IMG/VR virus record: IMGVR_UViG_3300028578_000002
Length of the DNA stretch: 40,299 nucleotides
Origin: a virus
Reading direction: 5' to 3' (one strand)
Numbering within the stretch: the first letter of the stretch is position 1; each line of letters opens with the position of its first letter. Of this stretch, positions 5,868 to 40,299 are shown in pieces. The notes beneath the pieces are model-generated. The model ran no database searches. It was not told the DNA's origin and saw nothing but the letters and a program-made list of their open reading frames with translations. A program made the position numbers and the translations under genes.

Positions 5868-6041
5868 CTACTTGCCCTCCTGTGCGGCGAGCTCGACGGC
5901 GAGGTCGAGGGTGCCCTTGAGGAGCTCGTCGGTGGCGGCGTCGGCGTCGGGGAGAGCCTCGCCGATCAGGTCCTCGGTGAGCTCGTCCTCGTCCTCGGTG
6001 GCGACGTAGTCGTCGTGGTCGTCCTGGTCGTCGGGTGCCAT
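5868..6041 (-). CDS. Hyper-acidic 57-aa protein
   Basis: ORF trimmed to ATG 6041. 21 of 57 residues are D/E. The start is preceded by a TAGCGT start-abutting motif. Confidence 0.6.
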   Translation of the reverse strand: MAPDDQDDHDDYVATEDEDELTEDLIGEALPDADAATDELLKGTLDLAVELAAQEGK

Positions 6042-6062
6042 GGCCACCACGCTACGGCGTGG
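6042..6062 (-). promoter_or_regulatory. Start-abutting motif copy B1 (CCACGCCG TAGCGT GGTGGCC | ATG)
   Basis: Read on the minus strand. The TANNNT-like hexamer lies 7 nt from ATG 6041, with no Shine-Dalgarno. Confidence 0.45.
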
Positions 6063-6081
6063 AGCAGCGGGGCCGCCGGAT

Positions 6082-7828: not shown

Positions 7829-7846
7829 GGACGTGCTCCTAGGTCG

Positions 7847-8677
7847 CTAGATCCAACCGGGCCGGGCGCTGGCGACGAGATGAGCGGCGAGCCCGGAGCC
7901 GACCGGCCGGTAGCGCAACGAGTTGACGCCGGGCTCGAGGGTCCACCACGACGACATGGGTAGGACGATGGTGTCGATGGCCAAGCCCGCGCCATTGATG
8001 CGGGCGATGCGGTTGACGTGGTCGATCTCGACGTAGTCGGCGTCGGTCGCGAGGATCGTGTCGGTGAACTTGATGCGCGCACCGGTGGTGGCGTTGACCA
8101 CCTCGACGCCGTTGGCGGGGCCGTAGGCCCGCAGGATCGGGTACACCGGGACGTTGCCAGGCAGGTCGAACTCGAGCGCGGGGATGCCCTCGTAGATCTC
8201 CTCGTAGGTCTCGGAGTAGCCCTCGCCCGGTTCGCCTTCGACGCTGAGGAGGTCGTAGGCCTCTTGGATCCCGTCGGGGGCGCGCCACCCCATGGTGACT
8301 TGCGCGAGGTTGGGTTGGGTGATGGGCCGCGAGTGCTGGTCGGGGGCGAGACGGATGCGGCGCAGACCTGATCCGGGCTCGAGCTCGTACACGAGGTGCG
8401 GCCGGCGCCACGGGACGAGGAAGGCGCCGAGCCGGTCGAGGACCTCCTGCCGGCTGGCCGTGGCGGTGGGGACGATCGCACCGGAGAGCACGACGGCGCG
8501 GCCACCGAACAGGGCGGTCTGGTCGTCCTGGCCATGCCGGTCGGGGTGGTCCTCGGCGACGGTGCGGATCGACGGGTAGCCGATGTCGAGGGCGTCGATG
8601 GCGATGCCGTGCTCGATGGTGAGCTCGAAGTCGTCGAGGCCTTCGGCTTCGAGGCGGGCTGACCCGATGTAGGTCAC
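7847..8677 (-). CDS. Distal tail protein (Dit)-like
   Basis: Immediately follows the tape measure gene with GTGA coupling. At 276 aa, its size and position are typical of siphovirus Dit proteins. Confidence 0.6.
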   Translation of the reverse strand: MTYIGSARLEAEGLDDFELTIEHGIAIDALDIGYPSIRTVAEDHPDRHGQDDQTALFGGRAVVLSGAIVPTATASRQEVLDRLGAFLVPWRRPHLVYELEPGSGLRRIRLAPDQHSRPITQPNLAQVTMGWRAPDGIQEAYDLLSVEGEPGEGYSETYEEIYEGIPALEFDLPGNVPVYPILRAYGPANGVEVVNATTGARIKFTDTILATDADYVEIDHVNRIARINGAGLAIDTIVLPMSSWWTLEPGVNSLRYRPVGSGLAAHLVASARPGWI

Positions 8678-11127
8678 GAGTCGAACCTCCCGGCCATGGA
8701 CGCGAACGCTGCACGTGAGAACAGGAGGTCGATGTCGACCTCGTCGTCGAAGTGTGCCTCGTCGATGGCGACGACTGGGCCACGATGCCCGGCGCCTTCG
8801 GCGACGAGGTCACCGAGGGCGTTGAGGGGGATGACGCGGGCACCGGCCCGGAGGTCGAGGAGTTCGGGCTCCTGCTCGCCGACCCATGAGAGGCCGGACT
8901 CGATGACCTTGCCGCCCTCCGCGAGGCCGCGGCCTTCGGGACTGATGCGGCCGCCGGGTGCGCTGCGGTTGCGTGCGAGCTCGGCGGCCGTGGGCGGCGC
9001 GGTGACCCGGCCGACCTCGAAGTCGACGTCGTCGATGGTGTCGGCGCTCACGAACGGGAGCGCGTCGTAGGCACGGATCGCGACGTTCATGGCGTCGATC
9101 ACGAGGTTGACCGCGTCCTCGAAGAGGTTGACCACGGCGTTGAGGATCCCCGAGAGGCCGTCGACGACCCATCCCCACAGGTCGCCGGCGGCGTCGATGA
9201 GCATGCCGGGGAGGTCGCGGAAGAATCCGACGATCTCCTCGAGGATGGCGAAGACGAGGTCCTTGGCCGCGCCGAGGCCGTCGCCGATGAGCGTCGTGAC
9301 GACGTCGAGCGCTCCGCTGACAAGGGTGGTGATGAACTCCCAGGCGCTGGCGAGGATGTCCTTGATCGCGTCCCACGCCTTGCCCCAGTCGCCATTGATG
9401 ATGGCGAGGACGAACTCGATGACCCCGCGGATGAGGTCGATGGCGAACTCGATGTGTGCCCGGATGGCGTCCCATGCGGCCTGGGCGGTGGCGAGGATCG
9501 TGTCGCCGAAGTATTCCCACGCGAGCGAGATGGCGGCGATGGCGAACTCGATGATGCCGCTGACGACGGTGATGACGTGGTCGATGGCCTCGGAGATCTG
9601 GTCCCAGTGGGTGCGGACCCACTCGACGAGGTTGCCGAACTGCTCGACGATGTAGTCGACGAACTTGCCGACCCGCGGCGCGACCTCGTTGACGATGAAC
9701 GCGATGACGGCGTCGACGATGTCGCGGAAGGTCTCGCTCTGGGTGTAGGCGTAGATGAGCGCGGCGACGAGCGAGCCGATGGGCGAGATGAGCAGCGCGA
9801 GCGTGACGCCGAGCCCGATGAGGATGGGCTTGAGGTTGTCGCGGATGAACGTGCCGACGGTGATGATGACCTCGCCGATCCGGCGGAACAGGTCGACGTA
9901 CTTGCCAGAGTTGCCGAGGAGGTTGTCCATGACCTCGCCGAACCCTTGGGCGCCGTCGTCACCGGAGAGGATCTTGAACGCGTCGACGACGGTGCCGATG
10001 ACGCGGGCGACGTCGGAGAAGATGTCCTCGGCGGCGACGAACGCTCGCTCGAGGACGGGTGCGATGCGCTCGCCGATCTCGATGGCGAGCACCGCGAGCC
10101 GGGCCTTGATCTTGTCGAACACCGGGCCGATGCCCTTGTTCATGGTCTGGAACGCCTTGTCGGTGGCGCCGGCGGCGTCACCCATGGCGACAAGGTTGTC
10201 GGTGAACGTCTCGCTGCCGGCGAGGGTCAGCGCGGCGGAGCCGGCCTCGACCGAGCCGAAGAGGTCGTTGACGCCGACACCGGTTTCGTCGGCGTGCTTC
10301 TTGAGGAGCTCGAGGGCCTGAGCGGTGTTGCCGCCCGCGGCAATGAACTCCTTGAACGACTTGCCCGCGATGTCCTCGAAGACACCGGCGGTCGCGGAGC
10401 CCTCCTTGGAGAGCTCGACGAACAACTGCCGGAGTTGGGTGGTGGCGACGGAGGTGGGGACACCTTGCAGGGTCATCGCGGCGAGGGCGGCGGTGACGTC
10501 CTCGAACGCGACGCCGAGCCCGGCGGCGGTGGGGGTGACGTTGAACAGCGACGCGGAGAGCTCTTGGAAGTTGGTCTTGCCGAGCCGGACCGTGGTGAAC
10601 ATCAGGTCGGACGCCTTGGTCGCGTCGACGAGCTCGGCGCCGTACGCGTTGACGACCGACGAAATGCCGTCGACGGCGGTGGTGAGGTCGGTGACGCCAC
10701 CCTTGGCGGCCTTCTGGGAGGTCTCGAGGAACTCGAAGACGTTGCCCGGTGGCACGCCGGCGGAGAGCGATTGGTACAGGGCGGGGACGAGCTTGTCGGG
10801 GAGGACACCGAACTCGGTGGCAAAGCCCTTCACCTGATCGGTCATCTTGTCCATCGCCGGGCCGGAGATGCCGGGGAGGAGGGTAAACACCTCGTTCATC
10901 TGGCGCTCGAACCCGGCGAAGTCGATGACGGATTTGATGCCGACGGCGACCGCGGCGCCGGCGCCGGCGATGAGGGCGCGGCCTGCTACCGCGCCGACCT
11001 TGCCCATGGCGCCGCCGATGCGGCCTTGCTCTCCTTCGACCTGGCGCTCGACGTCGTTGGCGAAGCCGTCCTTGAGGCGGGGGACGAGGTCGACGAACGC
11101 GCGCCCGGCGGTGAGTTGACCGGCCAC
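8674..11127 (-). CDS. Tail tape measure protein (817 aa)
   Basis: ORF trimmed to GTG 11127, which overlaps the TAG of the G-T frame. TP901-type core (FATEFGVLPDKLVPALYQSLSAGV...GGVTDLTTAVDGISSVVNAYG) and a long helical/TM-like repeat region. Confidence 0.85.
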   Translation of the reverse strand: MAGQLTAGRAFVDLVPRLKDGFANDVERQVEGEQGRIGGAMGKVGAVAGRALIAGAGAAVAVGIKSVIDFAGFERQMNEVFTLLPGISGPAMDKMTDQVKGFATEFGVLPDKLVPALYQSLSAGVPPGNVFEFLETSQKAAKGGVTDLTTAVDGISSVVNAYGAELVDATKASDLMFTTVRLGKTNFQELSASLFNVTPTAAGLGVAFEDVTAALAAMTLQGVPTSVATTQLRQLFVELSKEGSATAGVFEDIAGKSFKEFIAAGGNTAQALELLKKHADETGVGVNDLFGSVEAGSAALTLAGSETFTDNLVAMGDAAGATDKAFQTMNKGIGPVFDKIKARLAVLAIEIGERIAPVLERAFVAAEDIFSDVARVIGTVVDAFKILSGDDGAQGFGEVMDNLLGNSGKYVDLFRRIGEVIITVGTFIRDNLKPILIGLGVTLALLISPIGSLVAALIYAYTQSETFRDIVDAVIAFIVNEVAPRVGKFVDYIVEQFGNLVEWVRTHWDQISEAIDHVITVVSGIIEFAIAAISLAWEYFGDTILATAQAAWDAIRAHIEFAIDLIRGVIEFVLAIINGDWGKAWDAIKDILASAWEFITTLVSGALDVVTTLIGDGLGAAKDLVFAILEEIVGFFRDLPGMLIDAAGDLWGWVVDGLSGILNAVVNLFEDAVNLVIDAMNVAIRAYDALPFVSADTIDDVDFEVGRVTAPPTAAELARNRSAPGGRISPEGRGLAEGGKVIESGLSWVGEQEPELLDLRAGARVIPLNALGDLVAEGAGHRGPVVAIDEAHFDDEVDIDLLFSRAAFASMAGRFDS

Positions 11128-11929
11128 TAGTTCTCGACCTTCGGGGTGTAGCGCACGGTGCCGGGTCCTCTCCCGAGAGCCTTGGCGAGCTCGTCGGCGG
11201 TGAGCGGTCGCTTCCGATTCTGCCCGTCGTCGGGTGTCGGACGCCGGACCATCGTGGGCTCGGGCACGTGGGTGCCCCTCTTGGAGTTGGCCTTGACGAA
11301 CAGGTAGTTGGTGCGGCGGATCTCGTTGACGACGCCGGCGAGGAGCTCCTCGGCGTTGTGCCACTGGCCGGGCTTGAGCGCGCCGAGGTGGCGCGCGAGC
11401 CCGGACTCGGCCGGGAGGTTCGCTACGTGGGTGGCGACCCACCGGAACGTGCGGCGCTCGGAGGGTTCACCCCAGAGGGCGGCGACGAGGTCGGCCTGGT
11501 AGTACCGGGTGAAGTCGGCCTCGACGATGTCCCAGTGGCCGAGGACTACTTCGCCGAGGCTCGCGATTCCGGGAGCGTGACCTCGTAGACCTCGAGGGAC
11601 TGCTCGAGGAGGAAGACGATGTCCTCGAGCTCGAGCGGGTCGCCGGCCTTCTTGGCGTCGGCGATGACCTGCTCATAGACCTCGCCGCCGAGGAGGAGTT
11701 TGATGGCCGGGACCGCGCCGGTCCACTGGCCTTGGGAGACGAGGCCGGCGAGGTCGAGGACCTCGGCGGGGAGGCTGCGCGGGAGGGGCCGCTCGACGCC
11801 GAGGAACACGATGCACGGCGCGGGCCCCTGCTTCTCGCGGCGGGCCTTGCGTGCGGCGTCGAGGTCGATGCGCTTGGGGCCGTCGGTCGCCGGCGATGCC
11901 GGCTCCTCGTTGGTGGTGATGCCGGTCAC
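11127..11929 (-). CDS. Tail assembly chaperone, -1 frameshift product (G-T)
   Basis: The -1 frame is open from 11672 to TAG 11129..11127. It encodes ...GHWDIVEADFTRYYQADLVAALWGEPSERRTFRWVATHVANLP..., which is typical T-part sequence. Confidence 0.65.
11546..11929 (-). CDS. Tail assembly chaperone (G)
   Basis: 127-aa ORF between the major tail and tape measure genes. GTGA coupling to the major tail protein stop. Confidence 0.75.
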   Translation of the reverse strand: MTGITTNEEPASPATDGPKRIDLDAARKARREKQGPAPCIVFLGVERPLPRSLPAEVLDLAGLVSQGQWTGAVPAIKLLLGGEVYEQVIADAKKAGDPLELEDIVFLLEQSLEVYEVTLPESRASAK

Positions 11930-12495
11930 GAACCCTGGGTGTCCTCGAAGGCCGGGTGGTTGGTGTCGAGGATGAACGGCTCGAGCTCGGCCGAGCCGAG
12001 GAGGGCGAACGTGATGGGCAACAGACCGGCGGCGGTCCGCACGATGTTGACCTCGACGTTGTCGGAGACCATGCCCTTGGGGAACACGAGCCGGAAGTCA
12101 TGGTCGCCGTCTTCCCACTCGACGGCGAGCATCCGCTCGTCGATGTCCTGCGGGTCCGGCGGCGTGTACCGGTACGCGTTGGGCGCGGGCTCGGTGACCT
12201 CGCCGCCACCGAACGCGAGGCGCACGGTGTTGCCGTTCCACTGCATGAGCGAGAACGCGAGGGACCCTTCCTTGCTCGTGACGATCCGGCGGAGGTCGTA
12301 GAACGACTGCCACGCGCGGATGCTTTGGAGGCTCTTACCGTCGACCCATGTGACGCCGTCCTCGCTGGCGTAGCCGAGCTCGACCCACGCGCCGCCGAGC
12401 GGCGCGGTGATGTTCGCGGGGATGGGGCTCCCGAGCGGCGCGGTGTAGATGGAGCCGTTGGCCCCAATGACGATCTCGGACGGGTCCTTGGCCAT
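11926..12495 (-). CDS. Major tail (tube) protein
   Basis: 189 aa, positioned just before the G/G-T chaperones. GAGGAG lies 9 nt upstream of the ATG. Beta-rich sequence typical of actinophage tube proteins. Confidence 0.75.
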   Translation of the reverse strand: MAKDPSEIVIGANGSIYTAPLGSPIPANITAPLGGAWVELGYASEDGVTWVDGKSLQSIRAWQSFYDLRRIVTSKEGSLAFSLMQWNGNTVRLAFGGGEVTEPAPNAYRYTPPDPQDIDERMLAVEWEDGDHDFRLVFPKGMVSDNVEVNIVRTAAGLLPITFALLGSAELEPFILDTNHPAFEDTQGS

Positions 12496-12536
12496 GTTGG
12501 CGGTCTCCTCGTGGGTGTCCCCGGTGGGGTGCTGAG

Positions 12537-12554
12537 CGCGAGGCTACGCCGCGG
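12537..12554 (-). promoter_or_regulatory. Motif copy A4 (CCGCGGCG TAGCCT CGCG), 45 nt upstream of the major tail ATG
   Basis: Same 18-mer as at 23473-23491, 30470-30489 and 32859-32879. Its TAG is the stop codon of the upstream gene. Confidence 0.45.
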
Positions 12555-12969
12555 AGCGGTGTGCGTAGAGGACCACGCCGAAGATGTAGCGCTCGGAGTC
12601 GGAGTCGGGGTCGCCGACGTTGGCGAGGGGGAGGTCCTCGTCGACGGCGGTGATGACGCCACCGGTGACCTCGCCGGCCATGCCCTCGAGGAGGGCCTTG
12701 GCCCGGGCGCCGACGGCGAACGCGGTGGCCTCGGTGCCGGCGAAGGCGTCGATCTGTAGGCGGTAGCGGCGGAGGTGCTTCGCGGCCTGCTCGGTGGGGG
12801 TGCCGCCGATGCGCCGGATACGGAGGGCGGAGATGCCGGGCGCCCATGAGCGGTGGAGCCGGGAACCGATCTGCGCGTCGTCGACGAGCGCGGCCATGGA
12901 GGCCTCGGCCTTGAGGTAGGTGACGGCGATGGCTTCGGCGTCGAGGTCCTCGGCGATGGCGGGGCTCAC
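12544..12969 (-). CDS. Tail terminator / tail completion-like protein
   Basis: ORF trimmed to GTG 12969 (GTGA coupling). 141 aa, positioned immediately before the major tail gene. Confidence 0.5.
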   Translation of the reverse strand: MSPAIAEDLDAEAIAVTYLKAEASMAALVDDAQIGSRLHRSWAPGISALRIRRIGGTPTEQAAKHLRRYRLQIDAFAGTEATAFAVGARAKALLEGMAGEVTGGVITAVDEDLPLANVGDPDSDSERYIFGVVLYAHRSAA

Positions 12970-13295
12970 GTGTCTCCTCCTCGGTCGTAGACGATGGTGA
13001 GCCCGAGCGACTCGATGGCCCGGCGGAGCGAGCCGTCGGGAGCGCGGAGCGATGTGCCGAACTCGATGATCCCGGCCTTCCAATCCTCTGCGCCGATGCG
13101 TCCGATCCATCCGCGCTCGGTGAGGGCGACGTCCCCGAAGACGGAGTCGCGTAGGTCACCTTCGGCGACGGGGACACCGTCGCGGTAGACCTCGGCGCCT
13201 TCCTCGGCGAGGGCGTCGAGGAGGTGAGCAACGTGGACGTCACGGAGGAGTTCGGCCTCGAAGCCTCGGTTGAGCTCGAACCGTGCGGTGGCCAC
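12966..13295 (-). CDS. HK97 gp10-family neck/tail-component protein
   Basis: 109 aa with ...AEGDLRDSV...GIIEFGT..., the gp10-type EFGT motif. Connector-gene position. Confidence 0.6.
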   Translation of the reverse strand: MATARFELNRGFEAELLRDVHVAHLLDALAEEGAEVYRDGVPVAEGDLRDSVFGDVALTERGWIGRIGAEDWKAGIIEFGTSLRAPDGSLRRAIESLGLTIVYDRGGDT

Positions 13296-13298
13296 GCC

Positions 13299-13655
13299 CT
13301 AGCCCTTGTGCTCGTAGGCGACGGCCTCGAGGTGGTGCACGCGGGGGCGGCGCCGTCGAAGCAGCGTGTCGGGTAGAGCGCGGATCTCGAAGGTGCCGTC
13401 GGTGTCGACGATCCGGTCATAGCCGGTGATGGCCAGGGCGACGCCGGCAACAGTGGGCTCGAGGAAGTACCGATAGACGCGGGTCTGCGCGTCCTGCCCG
13501 TCGAGGTCTTCGCTGGCCTCGAGGAGCTCGCGCGCGGCGTGGACGCCGGCGGTAGCGGGGCCGTTGCCGATGATGTCGTTGCCGCGCGCGTCGGTGCCGG
13601 TGACGACGCGTCGTTGCACGGTGATCGTGCGGTCGAGCATCCGACGGAACGTCAC
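13299..13655 (-). CDS. Head closure / head-tail joining protein
   Basis: ORF trimmed to GTG 13655 (GTGA coupling). 118 aa beginning ...LDRTITVQRR. Position after the adaptor gene. Confidence 0.55.
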   Translation of the reverse strand: MTFRRMLDRTITVQRRVVTGTDARGNDIIGNGPATAGVHAARELLEASEDLDGQDAQTRVYRYFLEPTVAGVALAITGYDRIVDTDGTFEIRALPDTLLRRRRPRVHHLEAVAYEHKG

Positions 13656-14251
13656 GAGCCGACGGCCTCGAAGATGCCGGGCGCGGCCATCGACACGCGG
13701 TAGAGGTCGAGCTCGCGCCGGTCGGGCGCGGCAAGGGTGGGGAGCCGGGACTCGTCGAACGCGAAGCCGGCCGAGTAGCCGCCCATGCTCTCTTGTGAGA
13801 GGCCTTCGGGGTTGACGAGGGCGCGTGCGGCGACGCGCAGGACGACGAGCTTGACGGCTTCGATCTCGTTGGCGCTGAGCCCGTAGGAGATCGTGACCTC
13901 GTACCACCGCGACCGGCGGAGCCAGACGCCACCGTCAACGCGGTGCAAGATGCCGTCGCGGTTCCAGTCGAAAGCGGTGTCGACGGCGAGGTCGGTGGCC
14001 GCGCCGCGGGGGTCCTCGACGATGGAGATGACGTCGATGATGTGGTCCGCGGGGAGCAACATGACCGGGGTGCCGGAGCCGTCGATGAGCCCGACGGCCT
14101 CGACGGCTTCGAGGCTTGGTCGTTGGAGGTGGCCGAGCACCATGCCCGAGACGCCGGCGAGGAGGAGCTCAGCGCGTCGGACCTCGTCGCCGACGGGCGC
14201 GTCGAGCTCGAGGAAGTCGGCGAGCTCGGTGGCGCTCGCGAGGAGGGTCAT
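13652..14251 (-). CDS. Head-tail adaptor (gp6-like connector)
   Basis: N-terminal ATELADFLELD...RAELLLAGVSGMV is typical of gp6-like connectors. ATGA coupling to the upstream gene. Confidence 0.6.
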   Translation of the reverse strand: MTLLASATELADFLELDAPVGDEVRRAELLLAGVSGMVLGHLQRPSLEAVEAVGLIDGSGTPVMLLPADHIIDVISIVEDPRGAATDLAVDTAFDWNRDGILHRVDGGVWLRRSRWYEVTISYGLSANEIEAVKLVVLRVAARALVNPEGLSQESMGGYSAGFAFDESRLPTLAAPDRRELDLYRVSMAAPGIFEAVGS

Positions 14252-15747
14252 GCCTGCGGGTTGTCCTTGACGACGCGGCGCCGGCGCGAGCTCGGAGGCT
14301 GGCGCTTCTTGTCCTTGACCCCGACCTCGTCGTCGTCATCGTCGTCGCTGGCGCTGGCCGTGTTCGCTCCGATGCGCTTGACCTTGTCAGCCATGGCCTC
14401 CTCCTTGCGGGCTCGGTGGGTGACACCGGAGGGGCGCATGACCCCGGCGAGGGCGGGCTCTGGCGCTGGTGCCGCCGTGGTCGAGGTGACGGGGCCGGCG
14501 CCACCCGGGTTGGTGATGTCACCGGTGGGAGCGGACCGTGCCGGGGCGGCGACGTCGGAGCCGAGGAGCCCGAGCCGCCGGGCGGTCTCGTCGCTGAGCT
14601 TGATGAACGAGCCGGGGTAGTCGGGGTTCGGGTATCGCTTGAGGTTGCCCATGCGGGTTCTCTCCTTGATGCGTTGGTCGACGGGGACGACATCGGTGGG
14701 TCCTCCGCACGATGCGTGGTTGGCGCCGCAGACGATGCAGGTGCGGGTGAGCATGCTCACGATGGCCGAGGCGGCGCGGTCGGCGGAGGTCCCATCGGTG
14801 CAAGGGTACGTGCGGGCGACCGCGGCTCGCCGTGACCGTGCCACTTCGGGCCGGTCTTCGAGGGCGGCGAGGATCGTGTCGGCGAGTTGGCCGGGCTCGG
14901 CGTTGAGGCCGACGTCGGCTTCGGTCCAGAACCGGAGGCCGTGTTGCACGTTGCGGCGGTAGGCGCGGGCGTTGAGGACGACGACGGGCCGGTCGAGCGC
15001 GGCGAACTCGAACAGGGTGGAGGAGTTGTCGACGGCGTACAGATGGGCGCGGGCGGCGACCTCGGCGAACGTGTCGACGACTGCGATGCCCGCGGCACGG
15101 TAGGCCGCGCTGGCTTCGGCGAGGATCCGAGGGTGGCCGTGGCCGATGAGCTCGACGCCGGCGGCCGCAAGGGTGCGCCGTGCCCGGTCGAGCTCGGGCG
15201 CGAAGTCGTCGAGCGCGGTGCCGGTCTCGGGGACCACGTCGCATCGCCAGTGGAACGACACCGCGGCGACGACGGGCTCGGCGGCGGGGGGCTCGAGCGC
15301 GAGGAGCTCGTCGACCTTGGGGCATCCGACGATGGCGTTGGGGGTGTTCGGGTAGAAGCGGGCGTTGCGGTCGGCGGCCTGGGCGTTGGGGACGATGAAC
15401 AGGGCGACGTGGTCGCGGCCGGTGCCGCCGGCGTAGGAGCGATGCCGGTCGCTGTAGGACTGGCCGGCGCCGTGCTCGAAGAGGATGACGGGGCGCCGGG
15501 TCCGTGAGCAGACGCGGAGGTCGCCGTAGGAGGCGGCGAGGATCGGACCGAGGCGGGTGCCGCGGTAGGGCCAGCCGATGACGACGCGGTCGAGGCCGTG
15601 GTAGCGGGCCCTGGCGGCGACCTCGAGGTCGGCGACGTAGACCGAGCCTCGGAGCTCGGCGGGGAGGGCACGCCAGACCGGTGCGAGGTGGTCGAGGAAG
15701 TGGACCTCGCGGGCGGAAAGGTCAATCCGGGGGACCGGCTTGGTCAC
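14248..15747 (-). CDS. Putative glycosyl-/glycerophospho-transferase (TagB/TagF- or GT-B-like) with a ~135-aa low-complexity C-terminal extension
   Basis: ORF trimmed to GTG 15747 (GTGA coupling). Motifs ILFEHGAGQSY, GHGHP and VDNSSTLFEFAALDRPVVVLNARAY. The fold assignment is tentative. Confidence 0.5.
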   Translation of the reverse strand: MTKPVPRIDLSAREVHFLDHLAPVWRALPAELRGSVYVADLEVAARARYHGLDRVVIGWPYRGTRLGPILAASYGDLRVCSRTRRPVILFEHGAGQSYSDRHRSYAGGTGRDHVALFIVPNAQAADRNARFYPNTPNAIVGCPKVDELLALEPPAAEPVVAAVSFHWRCDVVPETGTALDDFAPELDRARRTLAAAGVELIGHGHPRILAEASAAYRAAGIAVVDTFAEVAARAHLYAVDNSSTLFEFAALDRPVVVLNARAYRRNVQHGLRFWTEADVGLNAEPGQLADTILAALEDRPEVARSRRAAVARTYPCTDGTSADRAASAIVSMLTRTCIVCGANHASCGGPTDVVPVDQRIKERTRMGNLKRYPNPDYPGSFIKLSDETARRLGLLGSDVAAPARSAPTGDITNPGGAGPVTSTTAAPAPEPALAGVMRPSGVTHRARKEEAMADKVKRIGANTASASDDDDDDEVGVKDKKRQPPSSRRRRVVKDNPQA

Positions 15748-16943
15748 CGCGTGGCGACCTTGGCCTTGCGGCGGAGGGTGTCTTCGGCCTTGACCGGGCC
15801 GGTCCATTCGCGCTGGGCGTTGAGGGTGGTGCTCTTGTCGTGCTCGAGGGGAAGCCCGTCTACCCGTGCCGCGGTGAGCCCGGCGGCTTCGAGGTCCTCG
15901 ACGAAGTCGCCGTCGCCGTGGATGAGCCGGTAGCGCTCGTCGAAGTAGGGGATGACCGGACCCATGAGCTCGCCGGCGAAGAGGAATGCGAACCCGGAGA
16001 GGCCGCCCTTCGACCATGCGCCGCTCGTGACGGTGAGCCCGGCGACGTCATGGCCGTCGGTGAGGCGACGGTTCCAGTCGGGGTAGACGGCGGCGACCTC
16101 GGAAGGCGATGACCGGAGCGCGTCGGCGAGCGCTTCGATGGTGCCGGGGAGGAAGCGGACATCGTTGTTCAACAGCGCGACGTTGACGGGGTCGCCGGGC
16201 TCGATGGCCTGGGCGGTGCGGACCACCTCGTTCCAGAGGGCGTAGAGCGAGCCGCCGGCTTCGAGCGCGGGGCCGCGGTTGAGCACGACACGAGGCGAGA
16301 GGATGACGCGGTCGAGGTACTCGAGGAGCCGCGGGTCGGTGGATCCGTTGTCGGCCAGGAAGAGCACGTCGACGGCGGGGTCTGCGAGGACGGCCTCGAT
16401 GACCTCGGCGGTGCGGTCGGTCTCGTCGATGAACGGGATGCCGACGACGGTTCGGACCCGGCGCCGGGCGTGGGCGCGGACGTCGCAGCCGGCGACGTCG
16501 ACCTCGATGTCGATGAACCCGGCGCGCTCGAGCTCGACGGCGAGGAGCCGCGGGTCGATGTTCTCGTAGTGCTCGCCGGGTTCGAGCGTGCGGCGGCCGG
16601 TGATGCCGGAGTGGGGGCGGCGTCCGGGGCCCGCGGCGGTGACGATGAGCCGCCCGTCGGCACGGAGGTAGCGGGCTGCCATGGCGAGCACGTCGGGCCA
16701 GTCGGCCACGTGCTCAAGGACTTCGCAGCACACAACAACCTCGGAGCGCACGCGCACGGGCGGCGGGACCGCGGGGTCGAAGACCACATCGACACCGGGA
16801 CCGTCGACCACGTCGAGCCCGACATAGGTGGCGCCGGGGAACAGCGGCCGGACCGACCCGTTGAGGTCCCGGGACCCGATCTCGATGACCGAGGCGGGCT
16901 GGCCGGCGTGCGCGGCGACGTAGTCGTAGGCGGCGCGGTGCAT
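15744..16943 (-). CDS. Fusion of a class I SAM-dependent methyltransferase and a GT2 (GT-A) glycosyltransferase
   Basis: N-terminal VIEIGSRDLNGS...YVGLDV...CCEVLEHVADWPDVLAMAARYLRADGRLIVT. C-terminal VVGIPFIDETDRT...VLFLADNGSTD...LLNNDV. Confidence 0.75.
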   Translation of the reverse strand: MHRAAYDYVAAHAGQPASVIEIGSRDLNGSVRPLFPGATYVGLDVVDGPGVDVVFDPAVPPPVRVRSEVVVCCEVLEHVADWPDVLAMAARYLRADGRLIVTAAGPGRRPHSGITGRRTLEPGEHYENIDPRLLAVELERAGFIDIEVDVAGCDVRAHARRRVRTVVGIPFIDETDRTAEVIEAVLADPAVDVLFLADNGSTDPRLLEYLDRVILSPRVVLNRGPALEAGGSLYALWNEVVRTAQAIEPGDPVNVALLNNDVRFLPGTIEALADALRSSPSEVAAVYPDWNRRLTDGHDVAGLTVTSGAWSKGGLSGFAFLFAGELMGPVIPYFDERYRLIHGDGDFVEDLEAAGLTAARVDGLPLEHDKSTTLNAQREWTGPVKAEDTLRRKAKVATR

Positions 16944-16945
16944 CG

Positions 16946-18508
16946 CTAGAAGACGCCGTCGAAGATCGGAACGTAGCCGATGAACGCGCCCGTCGGGTCA
17001 TGGACGCTATGGCGGCCGATGACGTTGCCGAGGGTGGTGAGCCCGGTGACGACGGGGACTTGGTACTGGTTGAACGTGACGGACCCGCCGGCGGTGATGT
17101 TCCCCGCGACGTGGTGGTTGCCGGTGACGCGCTCGTGGCCGACGACCTCGAACGTCGACGGGTTGACCGGGTCGCGGCCCCATCGGACGTCAGTGCCGGC
17201 GGTGCCGTCGCCGGCAATCGTCGAACCGTCGGCGATCCGGTAGAAGCGCAGGTTGGCTTCGCCGATGACCTGGCATGCTTCGATCACGTCGTTGTTTTGC
17301 TCGGGCCGGATGAAGTCGACCGCAGAGCGCTCGTGCCGCGGGATGATGCTGGTGATGCCAGCTTGGTCGAGCTTCTGTGCGACCGTCCCGAAGTACCACG
17401 GCTCCTTGCCGAAGATGATGTTGCCTTGGAACGCGAGAGGGACAGCGCCGACCGAGCCGCCACCCACGTCCATGCGGGCACCGACGAAGGGGTTGGCGCT
17501 GAACGCGACGTCGCACGCGTTGCCGCCGTGGAACTTGGTGTCCTCGACGATGAGCGAGGACTGACCGGTCCCGTCGGCGTTGTCCGCGAGGACCGCCGTG
17601 CCCATCGCGTCGGGGAGGTCGCCACCGAAGATGTCGCCATTGATGGAGATGGGCACGTGCCGCAGGATGTTGAGCGCACCCGCGGAGTTCTTGACCATGT
17701 GCTGACTCGACGCGTAGGAGCCCTCGAGGATCGTGTCTTGCACGACGTTGTAGAGCGTGTACGCGAACTGGCCGAGCGGCTGCGCGAGGACCCGGCGGAA
17801 CTCGAGGATGGTGTCGTATGCGCCGGCGAGCTCGCCCTTGAGGATGACGTTGTTGGCGGCGCCGGCGTCGAAGCGGCAGACGACGTTCCCGTCGACGCAC
17901 CACGGGTCGTTGATCAGCGAGTTCTGCAACGTGGCGAGGAGCAGACAGATGCCCTCGTCGGGGTCCGCGAAGTTGGCGGTGACGGCCTCGATGTACGCGG
18001 AGACCAGGAGGCCGAACACGAGCGGGCGCGTGGCGATGCCGAGCGCGGGCCCGGGCCCACCCCAGACGGCGAAGTGCCCGTAGTACCCGGCGTACTGGCG
18101 GGGGTTGCCGTACGCGTTGCAGTCGACCCCGGCGCCCGCGTCGACGCATTCGATGATGGAGATATCGCGGCCCTGCCCGACGATGCCCTTGCCCAACATG
18201 TCGGGCCGGCCCTCGAGGTAGAAGTGGTCACCGGGGTTCGCGGGGAGCGGGAGCGCGACACCGTTGGCGCCGATCTCCTCGGCCTCCTCGCGTGCCGAGA
18301 TGAGCGCGGCGGTGTTGTCGAACGCGGAGCCGTCGGCCTTCCCGCCGTGGCGCTCGAGCGGGACGTTGATCATGTGCCGTCGGAGGAACTCCCCGCGGGC
18401 GAGCATGCCGAAGATGTCCTTGTAGATCTCGGAGTGCTCGGGGTGCGCCGGCGTGACGTCGGCGACGATCTCTGAGGGTAGGAGGTCGATGGTGTCTTCG
18501 GGTTGCAC
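16946..18508 (-). CDS. Pectate-lyase-superfamily / right-handed beta-helix protein (tailspike- or depolymerase-like)
   Basis: N-terminal HGGKADGSAFDNTAALISAREEAEEIGANGVALPLPANPGDHFYLEG signature, followed by a G/N/V/I-rich repetitive body. GTG start. Confidence 0.6.
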   Translation of the reverse strand: MQPEDTIDLLPSEIVADVTPAHPEHSEIYKDIFGMLARGEFLRRHMINVPLERHGGKADGSAFDNTAALISAREEAEEIGANGVALPLPANPGDHFYLEGRPDMLGKGIVGQGRDISIIECVDAGAGVDCNAYGNPRQYAGYYGHFAVWGGPGPALGIATRPLVFGLLVSAYIEAVTANFADPDEGICLLLATLQNSLINDPWCVDGNVVCRFDAGAANNVILKGELAGAYDTILEFRRVLAQPLGQFAYTLYNVVQDTILEGSYASSQHMVKNSAGALNILRHVPISINGDIFGGDLPDAMGTAVLADNADGTGQSSLIVEDTKFHGGNACDVAFSANPFVGARMDVGGGSVGAVPLAFQGNIIFGKEPWYFGTVAQKLDQAGITSIIPRHERSAVDFIRPEQNNDVIEACQVIGEANLRFYRIADGSTIAGDGTAGTDVRWGRDPVNPSTFEVVGHERVTGNHHVAGNITAGGSVTFNQYQVPVVTGLTTLGNVIGRHSVHDPTGAFIGYVPIFDGVF

Positions 18509-18526
18509 GCCGACGATCCTACGGGC
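18509..18526 (-). promoter_or_regulatory. Motif copy C2 (GCCCG TAGGAT CGTCGGC | GTG), ambiguous with a weak AGGA ribosome-binding site
   Basis: Read on the minus strand between the capsid terminator hairpin and GTG 18508. Confidence 0.35.
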
Positions 18527-18535
18527 GGGCGCGAA

Positions 18536-18561
18536 CCGGCCCGGGCGATGGGCCCGGGCCG
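18536..18561 (-). terminator. GC-rich hairpin after the major capsid gene (intrinsic terminator/attenuator candidate)
   Basis: Perfect 11-bp stem CCGGCCCGGGC/GCCCGGGCCGG with a 4-nt loop, 28 nt past the capsid stop. Only TT follows it on the sense strand. Confidence 0.5.
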
Positions 18562-18588
18562 GTCGTTGCTAAGCCGGGGGGCGAAGCG

Positions 18589-20037
18589 TCAGGAGCCGGC
18601 GGCGGTGAGGTCGATCTCGACGAACGCCTTGGGGCGGATCACGCCGAACGCCGCGCGCATCTCGGCCAGGATGGCGACGAGGTTGCGGACGAAGAAATCG
18701 GCGTGCGAGTCGCTGACCTGCAACGCGGCCTGCTCGCGGTCCCACAGGACCGCCATGCGCCAGTCGGCGACCATGCCGGTGCCTTCGGGCATGGCCTCGC
18801 ACTCGACGCGGGGCAGACCCCAGAGCGGCGCCGACGGGTTCGACGTGGGCCCGCCGAAGTAGAAGTCGCCGTTGAGGTTCCGCAACAGGTCGATCCGCTC
18901 GTTGTCGTTCGGGTGGAACACGTAGGCGGTGGGCCGGGCCCGGCCGACGGTGCGCACCTTGGTCCGCGCCTTGCGGGTGGTGGTGAGCAGGTCGGAGTCC
19001 CATGCCTGGGCCTGCGTGCCCTCGACCTCGAGGATGCCCTCGAAGTTCTCGCCGGTGTCGTTGCCGGTGAGGACCTGATCCTCGAGCGCCTCCTCGAGCC
19101 CGTACCGGAGGAACGAGTCGATCAGGGTGCGGATCTGCGCGGCGTCGGACAGGGCCCGCTTGGTCGCGGGGATCCAGTGGGCGATCGTCTTGACGTTCGC
19201 GGTGATCTTCTCGAGCGCGAGCCCGGACTCGGGCTTGCGACCGGCGGCGTTGGGGACGTCGGGGTCGGGCCCGGGGAACGCGGCGGTGGTGGCCTCGGGC
19301 ACCGGCGCGGCGTTGTTGGTGAACCCGGTCACCCGCGCGTACTCGACCTGATCGGAGCCGGTCGTGCCGCGGGTGATGAGGTCCACGATCGACAACGGCC
19401 GCTGGAACTGGCCGAGCCCGTCGAGGAGGCCGAGCCACTGGGTCTGCACGAGCGCGCCGCCCGACGTCTGCGAGACACCGGTCACGAGGTCCTTCATCCC
19501 GAACGCGACGGCGGGGGAGTGGATGCCCTTGGCCGACTCGGGGATCTGCCCGGACGGTGCCATCGACGAGAGCCAGGACTTGAACTCCGGCGCGGTGGCG
19601 AACTTCTCGCCGAGGCTGATGCCCTCACCGGCGGTGGCGGCGCCACCCTTGGCGAGCTCGCCCACGGGGCGGCCGAGGATGTTGAGGTCGTCGAGGAGCT
19701 TGGCGTCACCGTCGATGCCGAGGATGGCGTCATGGAACTCCTTGGCCTCCGCGACGAAGCCCTTGATCTGGTCGCGCTCTTCGGTGGTGAGGTGACGGCC
19801 CTCGCCCTCGGCCTTGGCAGCGATGTCGCGGGCCTTGGAGAGGGTGCCGAGCTTCTCGGCCTCGAGCTCGAGGCGGGACTTGCCCGCGAGTGCGACCTCG
19901 CCGGCGTCGGCGCCGAGGTGGCCGAACACGAACCGGAGGCGGTCGAGGAGCGGGAGGTCGGAGCGCTCGAGCACGAACCGTGCCGTGAGCAGGACGGCCG
20001 AGATGGTCACGGCCAGGTGGAACAGGGTGGAACGCAT
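18589..20037 (-). CDS. Major capsid protein, HK97 family (with N-terminal delta/scaffold region)
   Basis: ORF trimmed to ATG 20037 with AAGGAGGG 5 nt upstream. Core sequence ...KPESGLALEKITANVKTIAHWIPATKRALSDAAQIRTLIDSFLRYGLEEALEDQVLTGN... Confidence 0.9.
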   Translation of the reverse strand: MRSTLFHLAVTISAVLLTARFVLERSDLPLLDRLRFVFGHLGADAGEVALAGKSRLELEAEKLGTLSKARDIAAKAEGEGRHLTTEERDQIKGFVAEAKEFHDAILGIDGDAKLLDDLNILGRPVGELAKGGAATAGEGISLGEKFATAPEFKSWLSSMAPSGQIPESAKGIHSPAVAFGMKDLVTGVSQTSGGALVQTQWLGLLDGLGQFQRPLSIVDLITRGTTGSDQVEYARVTGFTNNAAPVPEATTAAFPGPDPDVPNAAGRKPESGLALEKITANVKTIAHWIPATKRALSDAAQIRTLIDSFLRYGLEEALEDQVLTGNDTGENFEGILEVEGTQAQAWDSDLLTTTRKARTKVRTVGRARPTAYVFHPNDNERIDLLRNLNGDFYFGGPTSNPSAPLWGLPRVECEAMPEGTGMVADWRMAVLWDREQAALQVSDSHADFFVRNLVAILAEMRAAFGVIRPKAFVEIDLTAAGS

Positions 20038-20060
20038 GGGGCCCTCCTTGGGCGATGGGT

Positions 20061-21191
20061 CTAGGAGAGCTCGGCCTCCGCGAGGTCGAGCTCGGCGAGC
20101 ACGGTGTCGTACCCACTGGCATCCTCGGACCCCGTCTCCGCTCCCGGCTCCTCCGCGTTGGCCCTGCCGGGCTCCTCCGCGTTGGCCGTGGCCTTGCCGG
20201 TGTTCGATTCGGCCGCGACCGTACCGCGGTCCTTGCCGACGATGGCGGATCGGACGCGGTTCTTGCGGACCCGGGCCTTGCGCGACACCTCGACGGTCAC
20301 CTCGATCTCCGCGGCGTCGGCGACCGTGACGGTGCCGTCGTCGCCGCGCTCGAACGACACCTCGTAGAAGATGCCCTCGCCGATCGGGTCGTTCCACCCT
20401 TCGACCAGGACGATGGCCCGGTCCTCGGTCGGGTAGGTGGCTTCCTGGTGGAGGTAGTAGAAGCCGCCGTCGCCGGAGTCGAGCTCGCGGAAGTGCTCGA
20501 ACGCGGCATCGTAGAGGGCTTCGACCTCGGCTTCGACGGAGCCCTCGAAGTCGACGTTGACGCGGGCCTTGGCGCCGGTCTCGGCGCGGCGCTTGGCGAC
20601 GGCCTCGAGGGCCTCGATGACCTGCTCGGCGTTGAGCTCGCCGTCGAGCGCGGCGGAGAGGAGCCGGGTCGCGGGGTTCGCTCCCTTGAGCGTGGGCCCG
20701 ACCTCGATGACGTCGAGCTCGAGGAGCTCGTTGGCGCCGTCGGATCCGCGGCGCTCCTCGATCACGTCGTACGCGAACGAGAACTCCTTGATCCGTCGCT
20801 TCTCGAGCCGCTTGGCCAGCCGGCGCGCGAAGGGCTCGTCGGGGTCGTCAACGTCGAGCCGGAACTTGGTGAGGAGACCGCCGTTGTCCTCGAGGCCGGT
20901 GCCGGCCAACAACGGGTCGCCGGCGCCGAGCTCCTTGGCTTCGAGGACCTCACCGACGTGGGCCTCGAGGTCGTCCCACTGGTGGGAGAAGATGACCGGG
21001 ATGGGGTCACCGGACGCGGCCCATCGCTCGAGGCTCTTGGCGAACGCGCCCGCGATGATCCGATCGCCCTGGTGATCGACGTTCCCGAACACCGAGACGA
21101 TCGCGGAGAAGACGCCGGGGCCCTCGTCGGGTAGCGCCTTGAGGCCGTGCAGGGTGGCGACGGTCTTGGCCTTGCGAATGGTCTTGCTCAT
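20061..21191 (-). CDS. Prohead (capsid maturation) protease, HK97/S78 family, with a ~190-aa C-terminal extension
   Basis: ORF trimmed to ATG 21191 with GGAGG 9 nt upstream. GVFSAIVSVFGNVDHQGDRIIAGAFAKSL...VIFSHQWDD. The tail contains ANAEEPG twice. Confidence 0.8.
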   Translation of the reverse strand: MSKTIRKAKTVATLHGLKALPDEGPGVFSAIVSVFGNVDHQGDRIIAGAFAKSLERWAASGDPIPVIFSHQWDDLEAHVGEVLEAKELGAGDPLLAGTGLEDNGGLLTKFRLDVDDPDEPFARRLAKRLEKRRIKEFSFAYDVIEERRGSDGANELLELDVIEVGPTLKGANPATRLLSAALDGELNAEQVIEALEAVAKRRAETGAKARVNVDFEGSVEAEVEALYDAAFEHFRELDSGDGGFYYLHQEATYPTEDRAIVLVEGWNDPIGEGIFYEVSFERGDDGTVTVADAAEIEVTVEVSRKARVRKNRVRSAIVGKDRGTVAAESNTGKATANAEEPGRANAEEPGAETGSEDASGYDTVLAELDLAEAELS

Positions 21192-21204
21192 GGTGGTCAT
21201 CCTC

Positions 21205-40249: not shown

Positions 40250-40299
40250 GAGCCGACCACCGGCGGGGGCAGGGCGTCGCTCTTCACGGTCGACGCGGC
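40173..40299. repeat. Second copy of the 127-bp terminal repeat
   Basis: Identical to 1-127. Confidence 0.95.

Follow-up and report, generated by a model that had tools for sequence, protein, structure and literature searches.

Between the major capsid and head-tail adaptor genes of the phage recorded as IMGVR_UViG_3300028578_000002 lie two genes, denoted gpB and gpC, which make up a cassette that related phages conserve at the same place and whose presence correlates statistically with a Gly-Ser (GS) tag at the C-termini of virion proteins. We consider it rather likely that the pair is a late-expressed virion-modification cassette acting on these tags, a variant of mycobacteriophage-like virion glycosylation that employs a different enzyme. 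A third gene in the interval, gpA, lies outside the conserved cassette. The window, meaning the whole stretch of 40,299 nucleotides analysed, derives from a complete, circularly assembled phage genome of ~40.2 kb.

Gene order and expression signals at the capsid/adaptor junction

All ORFs of the region lie on the minus strand, where the gene for the HK97-type major capsid protein (18589..19896; PF05065, E=2.7e-39; phrog_10, E=1.7e-51) is followed by the co-oriented gpA (16946-18508), gpB (15744-16943) and gpC (14248-15747), then by the genes for the head-tail adaptor (13652..14251; phrog_442, E=5.9e-25) and the tail tube protein (11926..12495; phrog_117, E=1.5e-33). A preliminary description of this DNA had placed three genes between the capsid stop at 18589 and the adaptor start at 14251, in agreement with the ORFs and the strong GC3 coding signal across them. 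The capsid start is uncertain: GTG at 19896 was chosen by comparison with relatives of 429-441 aa, and translation could also begin further upstream, at an ATG near 20037. In Jamun, Xeno and MargaretKali, whose capsid gene is 45% identical, a single ORF of about 80-90 aa parts capsid from adaptor, so that the 4.3-kb insertion is a true departure from the usual layout, as had been proposed. The junctions, read directly from the sequence, likewise agree with the coupling suggested earlier, gpB overlapping gpC in GTGA (15744-15747) and gpC overlapping the adaptor gene in ATGA (14248-14251), while between gpA and gpB a TAG stop is followed, after 2 nt, by an ATG.

The relatives divide this interval differently from the earlier picture of a single three-gene island. 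The order capsid, gpB homologue, gpC homologue, adaptor is found in L001 and L002; in L004 the capsid gene is followed by a GT2-like gene and a gpC homologue, in L005 by a TagF-GT4 fusion, and L006 shows the same capsid-cassette layout with an unrelated capsid and an SPP1-type portal. The synteny survey that had been called for thus finds gpB and gpC recurring together at the junction, but gpA in none of these relatives nor in any other cassette-bearing locus examined (about 110 loci). Since minimal cassettes exist that consist of the TagF-like enzyme and a methyltransferase, or of the TagF-like enzyme alone, the latter is the constant, and probably protein-directed, transferase. Neither the window nor the sampled neighbouring genes showed a gene for donor synthesis.

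Directly 3′ of the capsid stop codon lies a GC hairpin on the minus strand (18534..18564), described before as an 11-bp hairpin at 18536-18561, which is indeed present but has a 13-bp stem and a 5-nt loop. The 88-nt region around it folds at -47.5 kcal/mol (z=-2.56), no U-tract occurs 3′ of it, and a consensus scan of 11000-21500 detected neither a terminator nor a sigma-70 promoter. GC hairpins stand at the same spot directly after the capsid stop in L001, L002, L004 and L005, and their retention in relatives without gpA speaks against the idea that the hairpin insulates the island; it is probably an attenuator or mRNA-stabilising element that lifts capsid expression over that of the downstream genes. 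Hairpin and overlapping start/stop codons together would hold the enzymes well below capsid in amount and tie their expression to that of the virion genes. The TAGGAT noted upstream of gpA exists, not as a special element but as an ordinary ribosome-binding site of its own, an AGGA Shine-Dalgarno sequence 8 nt 5′ of the gpA GTG.

Enzyme families of gpB and gpC

gpB had been read as a methyltransferase fused to a GT2 glycosyltransferase, of which the first part is well founded and the second stands at the level of the family only. Its N-terminal domain (about aa 1-145; 16509..16943, minus strand) is a class I SAM-dependent methyltransferase, with matches to PF13489 (aa 11-145, E=6e-10) and phrog_32762 (E=5.6e-15), and methyltransferase models are matched by all 15 gpB family members compared. 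In the GT-A/GT2-like C-terminal domain (about aa 163-399; 15744..16457, minus strand), PF00535 falls below threshold on the window's own sequence (E=0.15, aa 167-284) but is significant in 5 of 15 homologues (best 6.1e-7), and the motifs DNGS, NND (replacing DxD) and GDGD are invariant. The homologous methyltransferase and GT2 are separate ORFs in L083.

The assignment of the 499-aa gpC as a TagF-like GT-B enzyme holds, while the glycerophosphotransferase activity suggested for it stays putative. Its only sequence-family match is PF04464 (25.7 bits, above the gathering score of 22.1 bits), which is matched by 40 of 40 homologues (best 1e-10), and the Foldseek searches on AlphaFold-type models suggested earlier gave a beta-helix fold for gpA and a GT-B fold for gpC, the latter with pLDDT above 90 over the catalytic region (aa 1-335; 14743..15747, minus strand). 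Structural matches comprise UDP-GlcNAc 2-epimerases (1.7e-11), TagF 3l7l (1.6e-8), Cps3D and SdgB. The motifs GHGHP and VDNSSTLFEFAALDRPVVVL, picked out beforehand, do occur in gpC and coincide with alignment columns that are invariant in the family (H203, H205, P206, D240, N241, S243).

gpC thus shares Pfam family and GT-B fold with the CDP-glycerol or CDP-ribitol polyol-phosphate transferases TagB/TagF/TarL (S. epidermidis TagF, PDB 3L7I-3L7M) and with TagF-like capsule polymerases (Cps3D, PDB 8QOY), as well as histidines invariant in each of the two Rossmann halves (H92 in EHGAGQ, H203/H205 in GHGHP), and its C-terminal signature DNSS...RPVVV...Y..R...G.RFW presumably resembles that of the TagF family. 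It differs in matching no TagF by sequence profile, in being structurally closer to UDP-GlcNAc 2-epimerases, in having no membrane-association or polymer-binding N-terminal region, and in its phage head-tail operon context, with protein C-termini as the likely acceptor; its cellular homologue, moreover, sits in a nucleotide-sugar cluster and not in a tag/tar operon. To our knowledge, all characterised PF04464 enzymes use lipid-linked or polymeric glycan acceptors, not proteins. A different parallel is offered by S. aureus SdgB (PDB 7VFK-7VFN), also of GT-B fold (structural match E about 5e-8, with a low TM-score of about 0.3), which glycosylates the hydroxyl groups of serines within short Ser-containing repeats of a protein, as serine is the acceptor proposed for gpC; SdgB, however, belongs to family GT4, and its acceptor is an SD repeat inside the protein, not a Gly-Ser at the C-terminus.

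Enzymes of the gpC type are widespread in uncultured phages, with at least 526 homologues and at least 200 IMG/VR contigs carrying one, and none was found in cultured phages. Most are about 320-350 aa long and lack the C-terminal extension, which pLDDT profile and family consensus place at aa 336-499 (14248..14742, minus strand) and which is confined to the closest relatives; most of it is disordered, apart from a CxxC...C beta-hairpin (about aa 345-385) and a single helix (444-463), and it also contains a KRYPNP motif and a tail that is first acidic, then basic.

C-terminal Gly-Ser and a proposed virion modification

The capsid protein ends ...FVEIDLTAAGS-stop, and we propose its last three residues, AGS (codons at 18592-18600), as a candidate C-terminal acceptor tag; the adaptor and tail tube carry the tag too, since they end ...GIFEAVGS-stop and ...AFEDTQGS-stop. 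GS also ends two apparently non-structural ORFs of the window. Across 80 IMG/VR viral loci of 30-73% GC, picked only by gpC homology, 119 of 967 plus-strand ORFs have GS at their C-terminus, against about 5.8 expected from internal dipeptide frequency, the next commonest ending being AA (38 times). Most of the proteins so tagged are capsid, tail-tube or connector subunits, and their families are unrelated: capsids of PF05065 (38), SU10_MCP (5), P22 coat (2) and Phage_capsid_4 (2), tail tubes of four families, and also adaptors, head-closure and tail-completion proteins. The capsid protein has a GS ending in 27 of 34 enzyme-positive but only 5 of 60 enzyme-negative loci (Fisher p=2.3e-12, uncorrected for shared ancestry), and it ends in Ser in all 34 of the former; non-redundant capsid tails from enzyme-positive loci number 20 with GS and 6 without. 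Many enzyme-negative capsid homologues end ...FVEIDLTA-stop, the window C-terminus minus AGS. For tail tubes the counts are 11/15 versus 0/21 for GS and 15/15 versus 0/21 for Ser, and for adaptors 9/12 versus 2/67 for GS.

This enrichment, with its enzyme-negative controls, makes virion modification the best supported of the three functions offered in the preliminary description. Another of them, in which gpB and gpC would remodel a host wall polymer such as one of teichoic-acid type, late in infection or from a prophage, and so block superinfection or re-adsorption of progeny to debris, as the prophage glycosyltransferase TarP alters wall teichoic acid, we regard as unlikely. Characterised members of gpC's sole family build wall or capsule polyol-phosphate polymers (TagF, Cps3D), and a cellular homologue, 37-50% identical, belongs to a cell-surface sugar cluster of Halalkalibacter; yet such remodelling leaves unexplained the C-terminal Gly-Ser on unrelated capsid, tail-tube and adaptor families in enzyme-carrying genomes, the genes sit inside the head-tail operon, coupled to the adaptor gene, and not in a lysogenic-conversion module, and homologues occur in MAGs of lineages that lack teichoic acid (Verrucomicrobiota, Bacteroidota, a haloarchaeon), although MAG binning of phage contigs is uncertain. 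TarP is, like gpB/gpC, a phage-encoded GT2-type enzyme dealing with teichoic-acid-type chemistry, but a lysogenic-conversion GT-A enzyme acting on host wall teichoic acid, whereas gpB and gpC are encoded in a late structural operon, and their occurrence co-varies with that of virion-protein tags.

For virion modification, the tags on capsid, adaptor and tail tube (AGS, VGS, QGS) share a small residue followed by a C-terminal serine, to whose hydroxyl gpC would attach the first group, a sugar or a polyol-phosphate; the gpB GT2 domain might then extend the chain and the methyltransferase domain O-methylate it, giving a glycan-type coat over head, neck and tail, as in Che8 and Corndog. That the GT-B enzyme and methyltransferase instead decorate phage DNA, in the manner of the T4 glucosyltransferases, is highly improbable: methyltransferase domains are present and T4 beta-glucosyltransferase is itself a GT-B enzyme, but no hypermodified-base synthesis genes were seen, the methyltransferase matches small-molecule or O-methyltransferase families rather than DNA methyltransferases, and neither the head-tail operon setting nor the association with protein C-termini fits.

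The closest known parallels are in mycobacteriophages such as Che8 and Corndog, the glycans of which, Freeman and colleagues are said to have found in 2023, attach at protein C-termini. The Che8 capsid and tail tube end ...NKTGS and ...YSDGS and the Corndog capsid ...PLVGS, as the virion proteins of the window end in Gly-Ser. Secondary accounts describe virion O-glycosylation systems in Che8 (gp108-110), Corndog (gp35-38) and Myrna (Freeman et al., 2023, Cell Host Microbe 31:1216, via PMC12363180, PMC11600133), with O-glycans on the capsid and tail-tube subunits of Che8 and Corndog made by phage glycosyltransferases (PMC12363180, PMC11600133, PMC11256854, citing Freeman 2023). As there, glycosyltransferase and methyltransferase are phage-encoded here, and the targets proposed for this phage, which like all its relatives is uncultured, are capsid and tail-tube subunits. 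The combination had been thought unmatched, but Che8 gp108 is a GT2-methyltransferase fusion, and Corndog has an O-methyltransferase (gp35) and glycosyltransferase genes within its structural operon (PMC4351075); it is the TagF-like component alone that lacks a precedent in cultured phages. Several differences stand beside these likenesses. This phage has no counterpart of the GT25 (Che8 gp110, Corndog gp38) that is essential according to those accounts; gpB has the opposite domain order to gp108, a methyltransferase of Methyltransf_23 rather than TylF/Methyltransf_24 type, and weak GT-A similarity only, near the DxD region (hhalign E of about 0.005); and gpC showed no detectable homology to the enzymes of Che8 or Corndog. 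The adaptor is tagged here and not in Che8, and the cassette lies between capsid and adaptor, unlike in Che8 and Corndog. The tag itself is not exclusive to gpC, for it accompanies non-homologous GT25/GT2 enzymes in Che8 and Corndog, and in mycobacteriophages of cluster N, Xeno among them, the capsid ends in GS with no glycosyltransferase annotated in the genome.

The beta-helix protein gpA

The 520-aa gpA is, as first described, a right-handed beta-helix protein of pectate-lyase/tailspike type (AF2 core 50-380, pLDDT about 88). In structure it comes closest to tailspikes and appendages of phages, namely Geobacillus virus E2 ORF18, phi29 gp12, CBA120 TSP3 and the Sf6/HK620 tailspikes (1e-7 to 1e-5), with which it also shares an N-terminal capping helix; profile searches gave no sequence-family match. 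Only 8 homologues, all distant, were found among 1.84 billion representatives, and two of them (P0139, P0142) occupy the distal end of tail modules, adjoining minor tail proteins. Being found only here, with relatives in tail modules, gpA is probably a displaced virion spike or receptor-binding depolymerase, most likely that of this phage and separate from gpB and gpC, inserted at an unusual place between capsid and putative glycosylation genes; the window's own tail module contains no large spike or fibre gene.

Because it is encoded beside capsid and connector genes, directly after the former, gpA might instead be a fibre of head or neck, attached to capsid or collar in the manner of the phi29 head fibre or gp12 appendages, and the neck-attached gp12 is among its top structural matches; this seems a minor possibility, given that gpA carries no GS tag and that tail-tip modules are where one finds the homologues that share its first 45 residues, a conserved stretch by which it is likely attached. 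More doubtful still is the earlier suggestion of a single unit that builds and trims, with gpA cutting back the glycan made by gpB and gpC or clearing host polysaccharide: the genes lie side by side in one orientation, gpA and gpB 2 nt apart, and the beta-helix fold is common to polysaccharide lyases, hydrolases and epimerases, but against it stand the missing gpA in other cassette-bearing loci, the tailspike-like structure, the tail-module setting of the homologues and their varying C-terminal tips, swappable as is typical of fibres and spikes.

Gene order between capsid and adaptor

The late genes of the window, whose GC content is 71%, lie on the minus strand, and nucleotides 1-127 are identical to 40173-40299; this 127-bp terminal direct repeat indicates that the genome, of ~40.17 kb, is complete and was assembled as a circle. 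Another copy of it, of 40,313 bp, is present in other sources. The head genes comprise the portal (21205-23235), an S78 protease upstream of the capsid gene (~20061-21182) and the HK97-type major capsid protein (stop at 18589; PF05065, 2.7e-39), while the head-tail adaptor (13652-14251; phrog_442, 5.9e-25) leads into the head-closure and terminator genes, tail tube (11926-12495), chaperone, tape measure (8674-11442), Dit (276 aa, 7847-8677), two small tail proteins and the endolysin, all on the minus strand. Between capsid and adaptor we find, as first described from the sequence, three further minus-strand genes, encoding gpA (520 aa, 16946-18508), gpB (399 aa, 15744-16943) and gpC (499 aa, 14248-15747), where the cultured phages Jamun, Xeno and MargaretKali, whose capsid gene is 45% identical, have one small ORF only.

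The preliminary description regarded the three genes as a single island with a boundary and signals of its own. Its overlapping junctions are present, ATGA between gpC and the adaptor and GTGA between gpB and gpC, with gpA and gpB spaced as TAG-2nt-ATG. The GC hairpin proposed to set the island off is also real, having a 13-bp stem at 18534-18564 and no U-tract, but it stands directly 3′ of the capsid stop and is conserved in relatives without gpA, so that it belongs to the capsid gene and was rejected as an island boundary. Likewise, the TAGGAT sequence is not a regulatory element, since it contains the AGGA ribosome-binding site of gpA, and no consensus promoter or terminator was found within 11000-21500 of the window.

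Related loci also argue against a single island. Homologues of gpB and gpC lie together between capsid and adaptor in two loci (L001, L002); a third has a GT2-like gene and a gpC homologue there (L004), a fourth a TagF-GT4 fusion (L005), and a fifth (L006), whose capsid is unrelated and whose portal is of the SPP1 type, combines two GT2 genes with a gpC homologue. The gene for gpA is absent from these five and from all other loci fetched. The block thus consists of two parts, an enzyme cassette, gpB+gpC, that recurs at this junction, and an unrelated, probably displaced tailspike-like gene, gpA. The cassette can be reduced further: four minimal loci (L034, L038, L064, L075) have a capsid gene ending in Gly-Ser (GS) and a TagF-like gene with only a methyltransferase besides, and in another (L053) such a capsid gene and the TagF-like gene are followed directly by a head-completion gene; elsewhere the cassette is enlarged by GT2, GT4 (as fusions), Glyco_transf_7C-like or extra methyltransferase genes. 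Because the minimal cassettes keep the TagF-like gene with a methyltransferase only or alone, the TagF-like enzyme is the constant part.

The C-terminal Gly-Ser ending

The capsid and tail tube end in GS (the tag) in the window, as ...AAGS and ...TQGS, and likewise in each of the five related loci, among them L006; the window adaptor also ends in GS. To count such endings in diverse loci, 80 of 200 IMG/VR contigs with a gpC homologue (enzyme-positive loci, GC 30-73%) were kept, and their ORFs, taken as plus-strand GC3-filtered calls, were classified by Pfam/PHROG scans. GS ends 119 of 967 plus-strand ORFs, as against 5.8 expected from the internal dipeptide frequency and 38 for the next commonest C-terminal dipeptide. 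These 119 ORFs are mostly virion subunits, adaptors, head-closure and tail-completion proteins among them, and the capsids and the tail tubes so ending each span four families (unrelated Pfam families in the case of the capsids), which indicates a convergent rather than inherited ending.

As a control we used 80 IMG/VR loci picked by capsid homology alone, none of which has a gpC homologue (enzyme-negative loci). Here 5 of 60 capsids end in GS, compared with 27 of 34 in enzyme-positive loci, where all 34 end in Ser (Fisher p=2.3e-12 for capsid GS endings, uncorrected for phylogeny, the loci not being phylogenetically independent). The corresponding counts are 0/21 and 11/15 for tail tubes (Ser endings, 0/21 and 15/15), and 2/67 and 9/12 for adaptors. 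Many control capsids end in ...FVEIDLTA-stop, which is the window ending, ...FVEIDLTAAGS, minus the tag. The same GS pattern is found in Rctr41k, the only deposited genome with a gpC homologue, and in most prophage-like loci in MAGs. As read from these genomes, the association of enzyme and tag is correlative.

The tag also occurs without gpC, in the mycobacteriophages Che8 and Corndog, which carry other glycosyltransferases. In addition, capsids of cluster N-type mycobacteriophages (L094/L098, both from Xeno, and L124, L125, L130, L131 and L157) end in ...PTSGS or ...LSSGS; Xeno has no annotated glycosyltransferase, and no gpC homologue lies nearby in these loci. Here the tag could be a relic, the substrate of a host enzyme, or a matter of chance. 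Two window ORFs of probably non-virion function end in GS as well, an exonuclease-like one at 74-1165 (minus strand; phrog_298; ...PPVVGS) and one of 108 aa upstream of the terminase genes at 27792-28118 (minus strand; ...GEVPGS), and these could be chance endings or additional substrates. A haloarchaeal contig of a Natronococcus sp. MAG (L199, NZ_JBLRWX010000055.1) encodes a gpC homologue of 40% identity and bears ORFs ending in ...SAAAGS (341 aa) and ...SSGSGS (156 aa), which suggests that an archaeal tailed virus has this system too. The window Dit has no tag. In several loci (L014, L055, L080, L085, L087, L180, L193, L207), however, the tape-measure gene is followed immediately by a small ORF whose product, of ~128-157 aa, frequently has ...GSGS or ...EGS at its C-terminus, so tail-tip components may also be tagged in some lineages.

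The enzymes gpB and gpC

The folds proposed at the outset, a beta-helix for gpA, methyltransferase and GT2 domains for gpB and a TagF-like GT-B enzyme for gpC, are borne out by the predictions, the GT2 assignment at family level only. The class I methyltransferase domain of gpB scores 39.5 bits against PF13489 (cutoff 27; 6e-10) and 23.3 bits against PF08241 (cutoff 21.2); all 15 gpB homologues match methyltransferase models, and there are weak PDB profile matches to UbiG-type O-methyltransferases. Its C-terminal domain falls below threshold against PF00535 in the window sequence itself (E=0.15, 12.4 bits versus a cutoff of 23.3) and is significant in 5 of the 15 homologues (best, 6.1e-7). Among GT-A motifs, DNGS is invariant and an invariant NND replaces DxD. 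In a more distant locus (L083, 7344-8401) homologues of the two halves are separate adjacent ORFs, so the window protein is a lineage-specific gene fusion.

The match of gpC to PF04464 (Glyphos_transf) lies just above threshold (25.7 bits, gathering cutoff 22.1) and covers the C-terminal half of the model only (aa 201-330), and the family is matched by all 40 gpC homologues sampled (best, 1e-10) from a family of at least 526 protein clusters. The AlphaFold model is confident over residues 1-335 and has a GT-B fold. In Foldseek it matches UDP-GlcNAc 2-epimerases (1.7e-11, TM 0.55-0.63) better than TagF (3l7l; E=1.6e-8, TM ~0.56 normalised to target), and it also matches Cps3D, a TagF-like capsule polymerase, and at a greater distance SdgB, a serine O-glycosyltransferase. 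H92, H203 and H205, spread over the N- and C-terminal halves, do not vary among 26-40 homologues; they are candidate counterparts of the catalytic TagF histidines H444 and H584, but the gpC family profile gave no hit to PDB sequences, TagF among them, even at E<=10. Residues 336-499 (14248-14742, minus strand) are mostly disordered, conserved in the closest relatives only and absent from the ~330-aa majority of the family; its recognisable elements are CxxCG...CG, the conserved motif KRYPNP..PG, a helix at 444-463 and a stretch of Asp that precedes one of Arg, and it may serve as a zinc ribbon or for targeting. With gpA, gpB and gpC as single-sequence queries, PDB sequences and NCBIfam yielded no informative match, tblastn of gpB and gpC against cultured phages gave no hit, and megablast/tblastn among 50,697 deposited phages found no relative of the island bar the metagenome-derived Rctr41k.

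We propose that gpC would be the transferase that recognises the C-terminal Ser, and that gpB would extend and methylate its product. What gpC transfers may be either a sugar or a polyol-phosphate. Its Pfam family and invariant histidines favour TagF-type, polyol-phosphate chemistry. Several observations favour a nucleotide sugar instead: gpC is structurally closer to UDP-sugar enzymes, an O-methyltransferase is a frequent partner, as in Che8 and Corndog, some MAGs with gpC homologues belong to lineages that lack teichoic acids, and a Halalkalibacter homologue lies in a sugar cluster with dehydratase, aminotransferase, acyltransferase and GT2(-TPR) genes. TagB/TagF enzymes use CDP-glycerol or CDP-ribitol on wall or capsule polymers and are encoded with tagD/tarI-type donor genes; the gene context of gpC is a phage head-tail operon instead, and no cytidylyltransferase was found among the neighbouring genes sampled. 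It seems rather unlikely to us that gpC acts as a genuine polyol-phosphate transferase, initiating and possibly also polymerising a glycerol- or ribitol-phosphate chain on the C-terminal Ser of capsid, adaptor and tail tube, with its GT2/GT4 and methyltransferase partners decorating the chain. Were it so, virions of many uncultured phages from several phyla would wear a teichoic-acid-like coat readable in the genome as a C-terminal Gly-Ser tag, amounting to a new type of protein modification and a new class of acceptor for the TagF family.

The Halalkalibacter sp. homologue (L187, 7983-9410; 475 aa, 37-50% identity) has a Methyltransf_14-like C-terminus and neighbours encoding a 4,6-dehydratase, a DegT aminotransferase, a hexapeptide acyltransferase, a GT2 and a GT2-TPR protein; in H. 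hemicellulosilyticus JCM 9152 (L205) the homologous gene appears disrupted. Neither locus yielded a GS-ending ORF, and both resemble a cellular glycan cluster more than a prophage.

Virion glycosylation is, to our knowledge, shown so far only for a few mycobacteriophages, in which O-linked glycans reportedly occur at the C-termini of virion proteins, and is said to be rare outside actinobacteriophages. The papers citing the mycobacteriophage glycosylation study gave no detail of an acceptor motif. In Che8 the capsid ends in ...NKTGS and the tail tube in ...YSDGS, and in Corndog in ...PLVGS and ...KGDS, so that GS stands on both capsids and the Che8 tail tube, as on the window capsid and tail tube. 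The enzymes are likewise of similar kinds, phage glycosyltransferases with a methyltransferase: Che8 has a fusion of GT2 and methyltransferase in gp108 and a GT25 enzyme in gp110, Corndog a TylF-type O-methyltransferase in gp35 and a GT25 enzyme in gp38, and the window a methyltransferase and, at family level, a GT2 domain in gpB and a GT-B transferase in gpC. Corndog carries its O-methyltransferase and three glycosyltransferase genes within the structural operon (PMC4351075). However, GT25, reported to be essential in those phages, is absent from the window, gpC has no detectable homology to any cultured-phage protein, and the gpB family, compared with gp110/gp38 by hhalign, shows no more than weak GT-A similarity (E ~0.005-0.008 over ~58 residues). 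With tag and enzyme types in common and homologous enzymes not, the window matches Che8 and Corndog in substrate tag and enzyme logic only.

Judged from sequence and predicted structure, gpB+gpC would hence be a new enzyme variant of a known phage strategy for virion glycosylation, marked by a TagF-like GT-B gene and C-terminal Gly-Ser, and the variant appears widespread in uncultured phages. The window points to a second, non-homologous enzyme system, which counts at least 526 protein clusters, is carried by 200 IMG/VR contigs and by MAGs of many phyla, and goes together with one and the same C-terminal ending on capsids, tail tubes and connectors that differ in fold and family. Should enzyme and tag be causally linked, modification of phage surfaces would be far commoner than cultured phages indicate and predictable from sequence alone, by enzyme plus tag; the tag could serve as a handle for glycan-shielded therapeutic phages or site-specific C-terminal protein modification, and the question would arise whether a TagF-family enzyme can take a protein serine as acceptor.

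The beta-helix protein gpA

The AF2 model of gpA is a parallel right-handed beta-helix (core pLDDT ~88), for which Foldseek returns tailspikes and appendages as well as pectate-lyase-fold enzymes (1e-7 to 1e-5), phage tailspikes and appendages being the best. Sequence searches gave no Pfam, PHROG, NCBIfam or PDB match, nor a Pectate_lyase_3-type signature. An indexed search found no homologue, and an exhaustive HMMER search found eight relatives of 32-45% identity. Those of known context (P0139, P0142; L008, L009) lie at the distal end of tail modules, and the genes flanking them have no counterparts in the window. The relatives (A3 alignment, P0138-P0145) have a C-terminal tip of either of two kinds, GY(I/V)P(I/V)(F/Y)D... 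or YFDTTL..KPIWWNGT.W, which looks like domain swapping at a putative receptor-binding end.

The tail-tip module of the window (5868-8677, minus strand) is unusually small for a siphovirus, encoding Dit (276 aa), a protein of 193 aa, a minor tail protein of 391 aa and an ORF of 82 aa before the endolysin follows directly, and no large fibre or spike gene was found in it. A head or neck fibre, at home beside the capsid gene, is a lesser possibility for gpA. Given its relatives in tail modules, their exchangeable tips and a window tail tip without a large spike, gpA is best read, as a predicted role, as the product of a tailspike-like gene that is mobile and came to lie behind the capsid gene.
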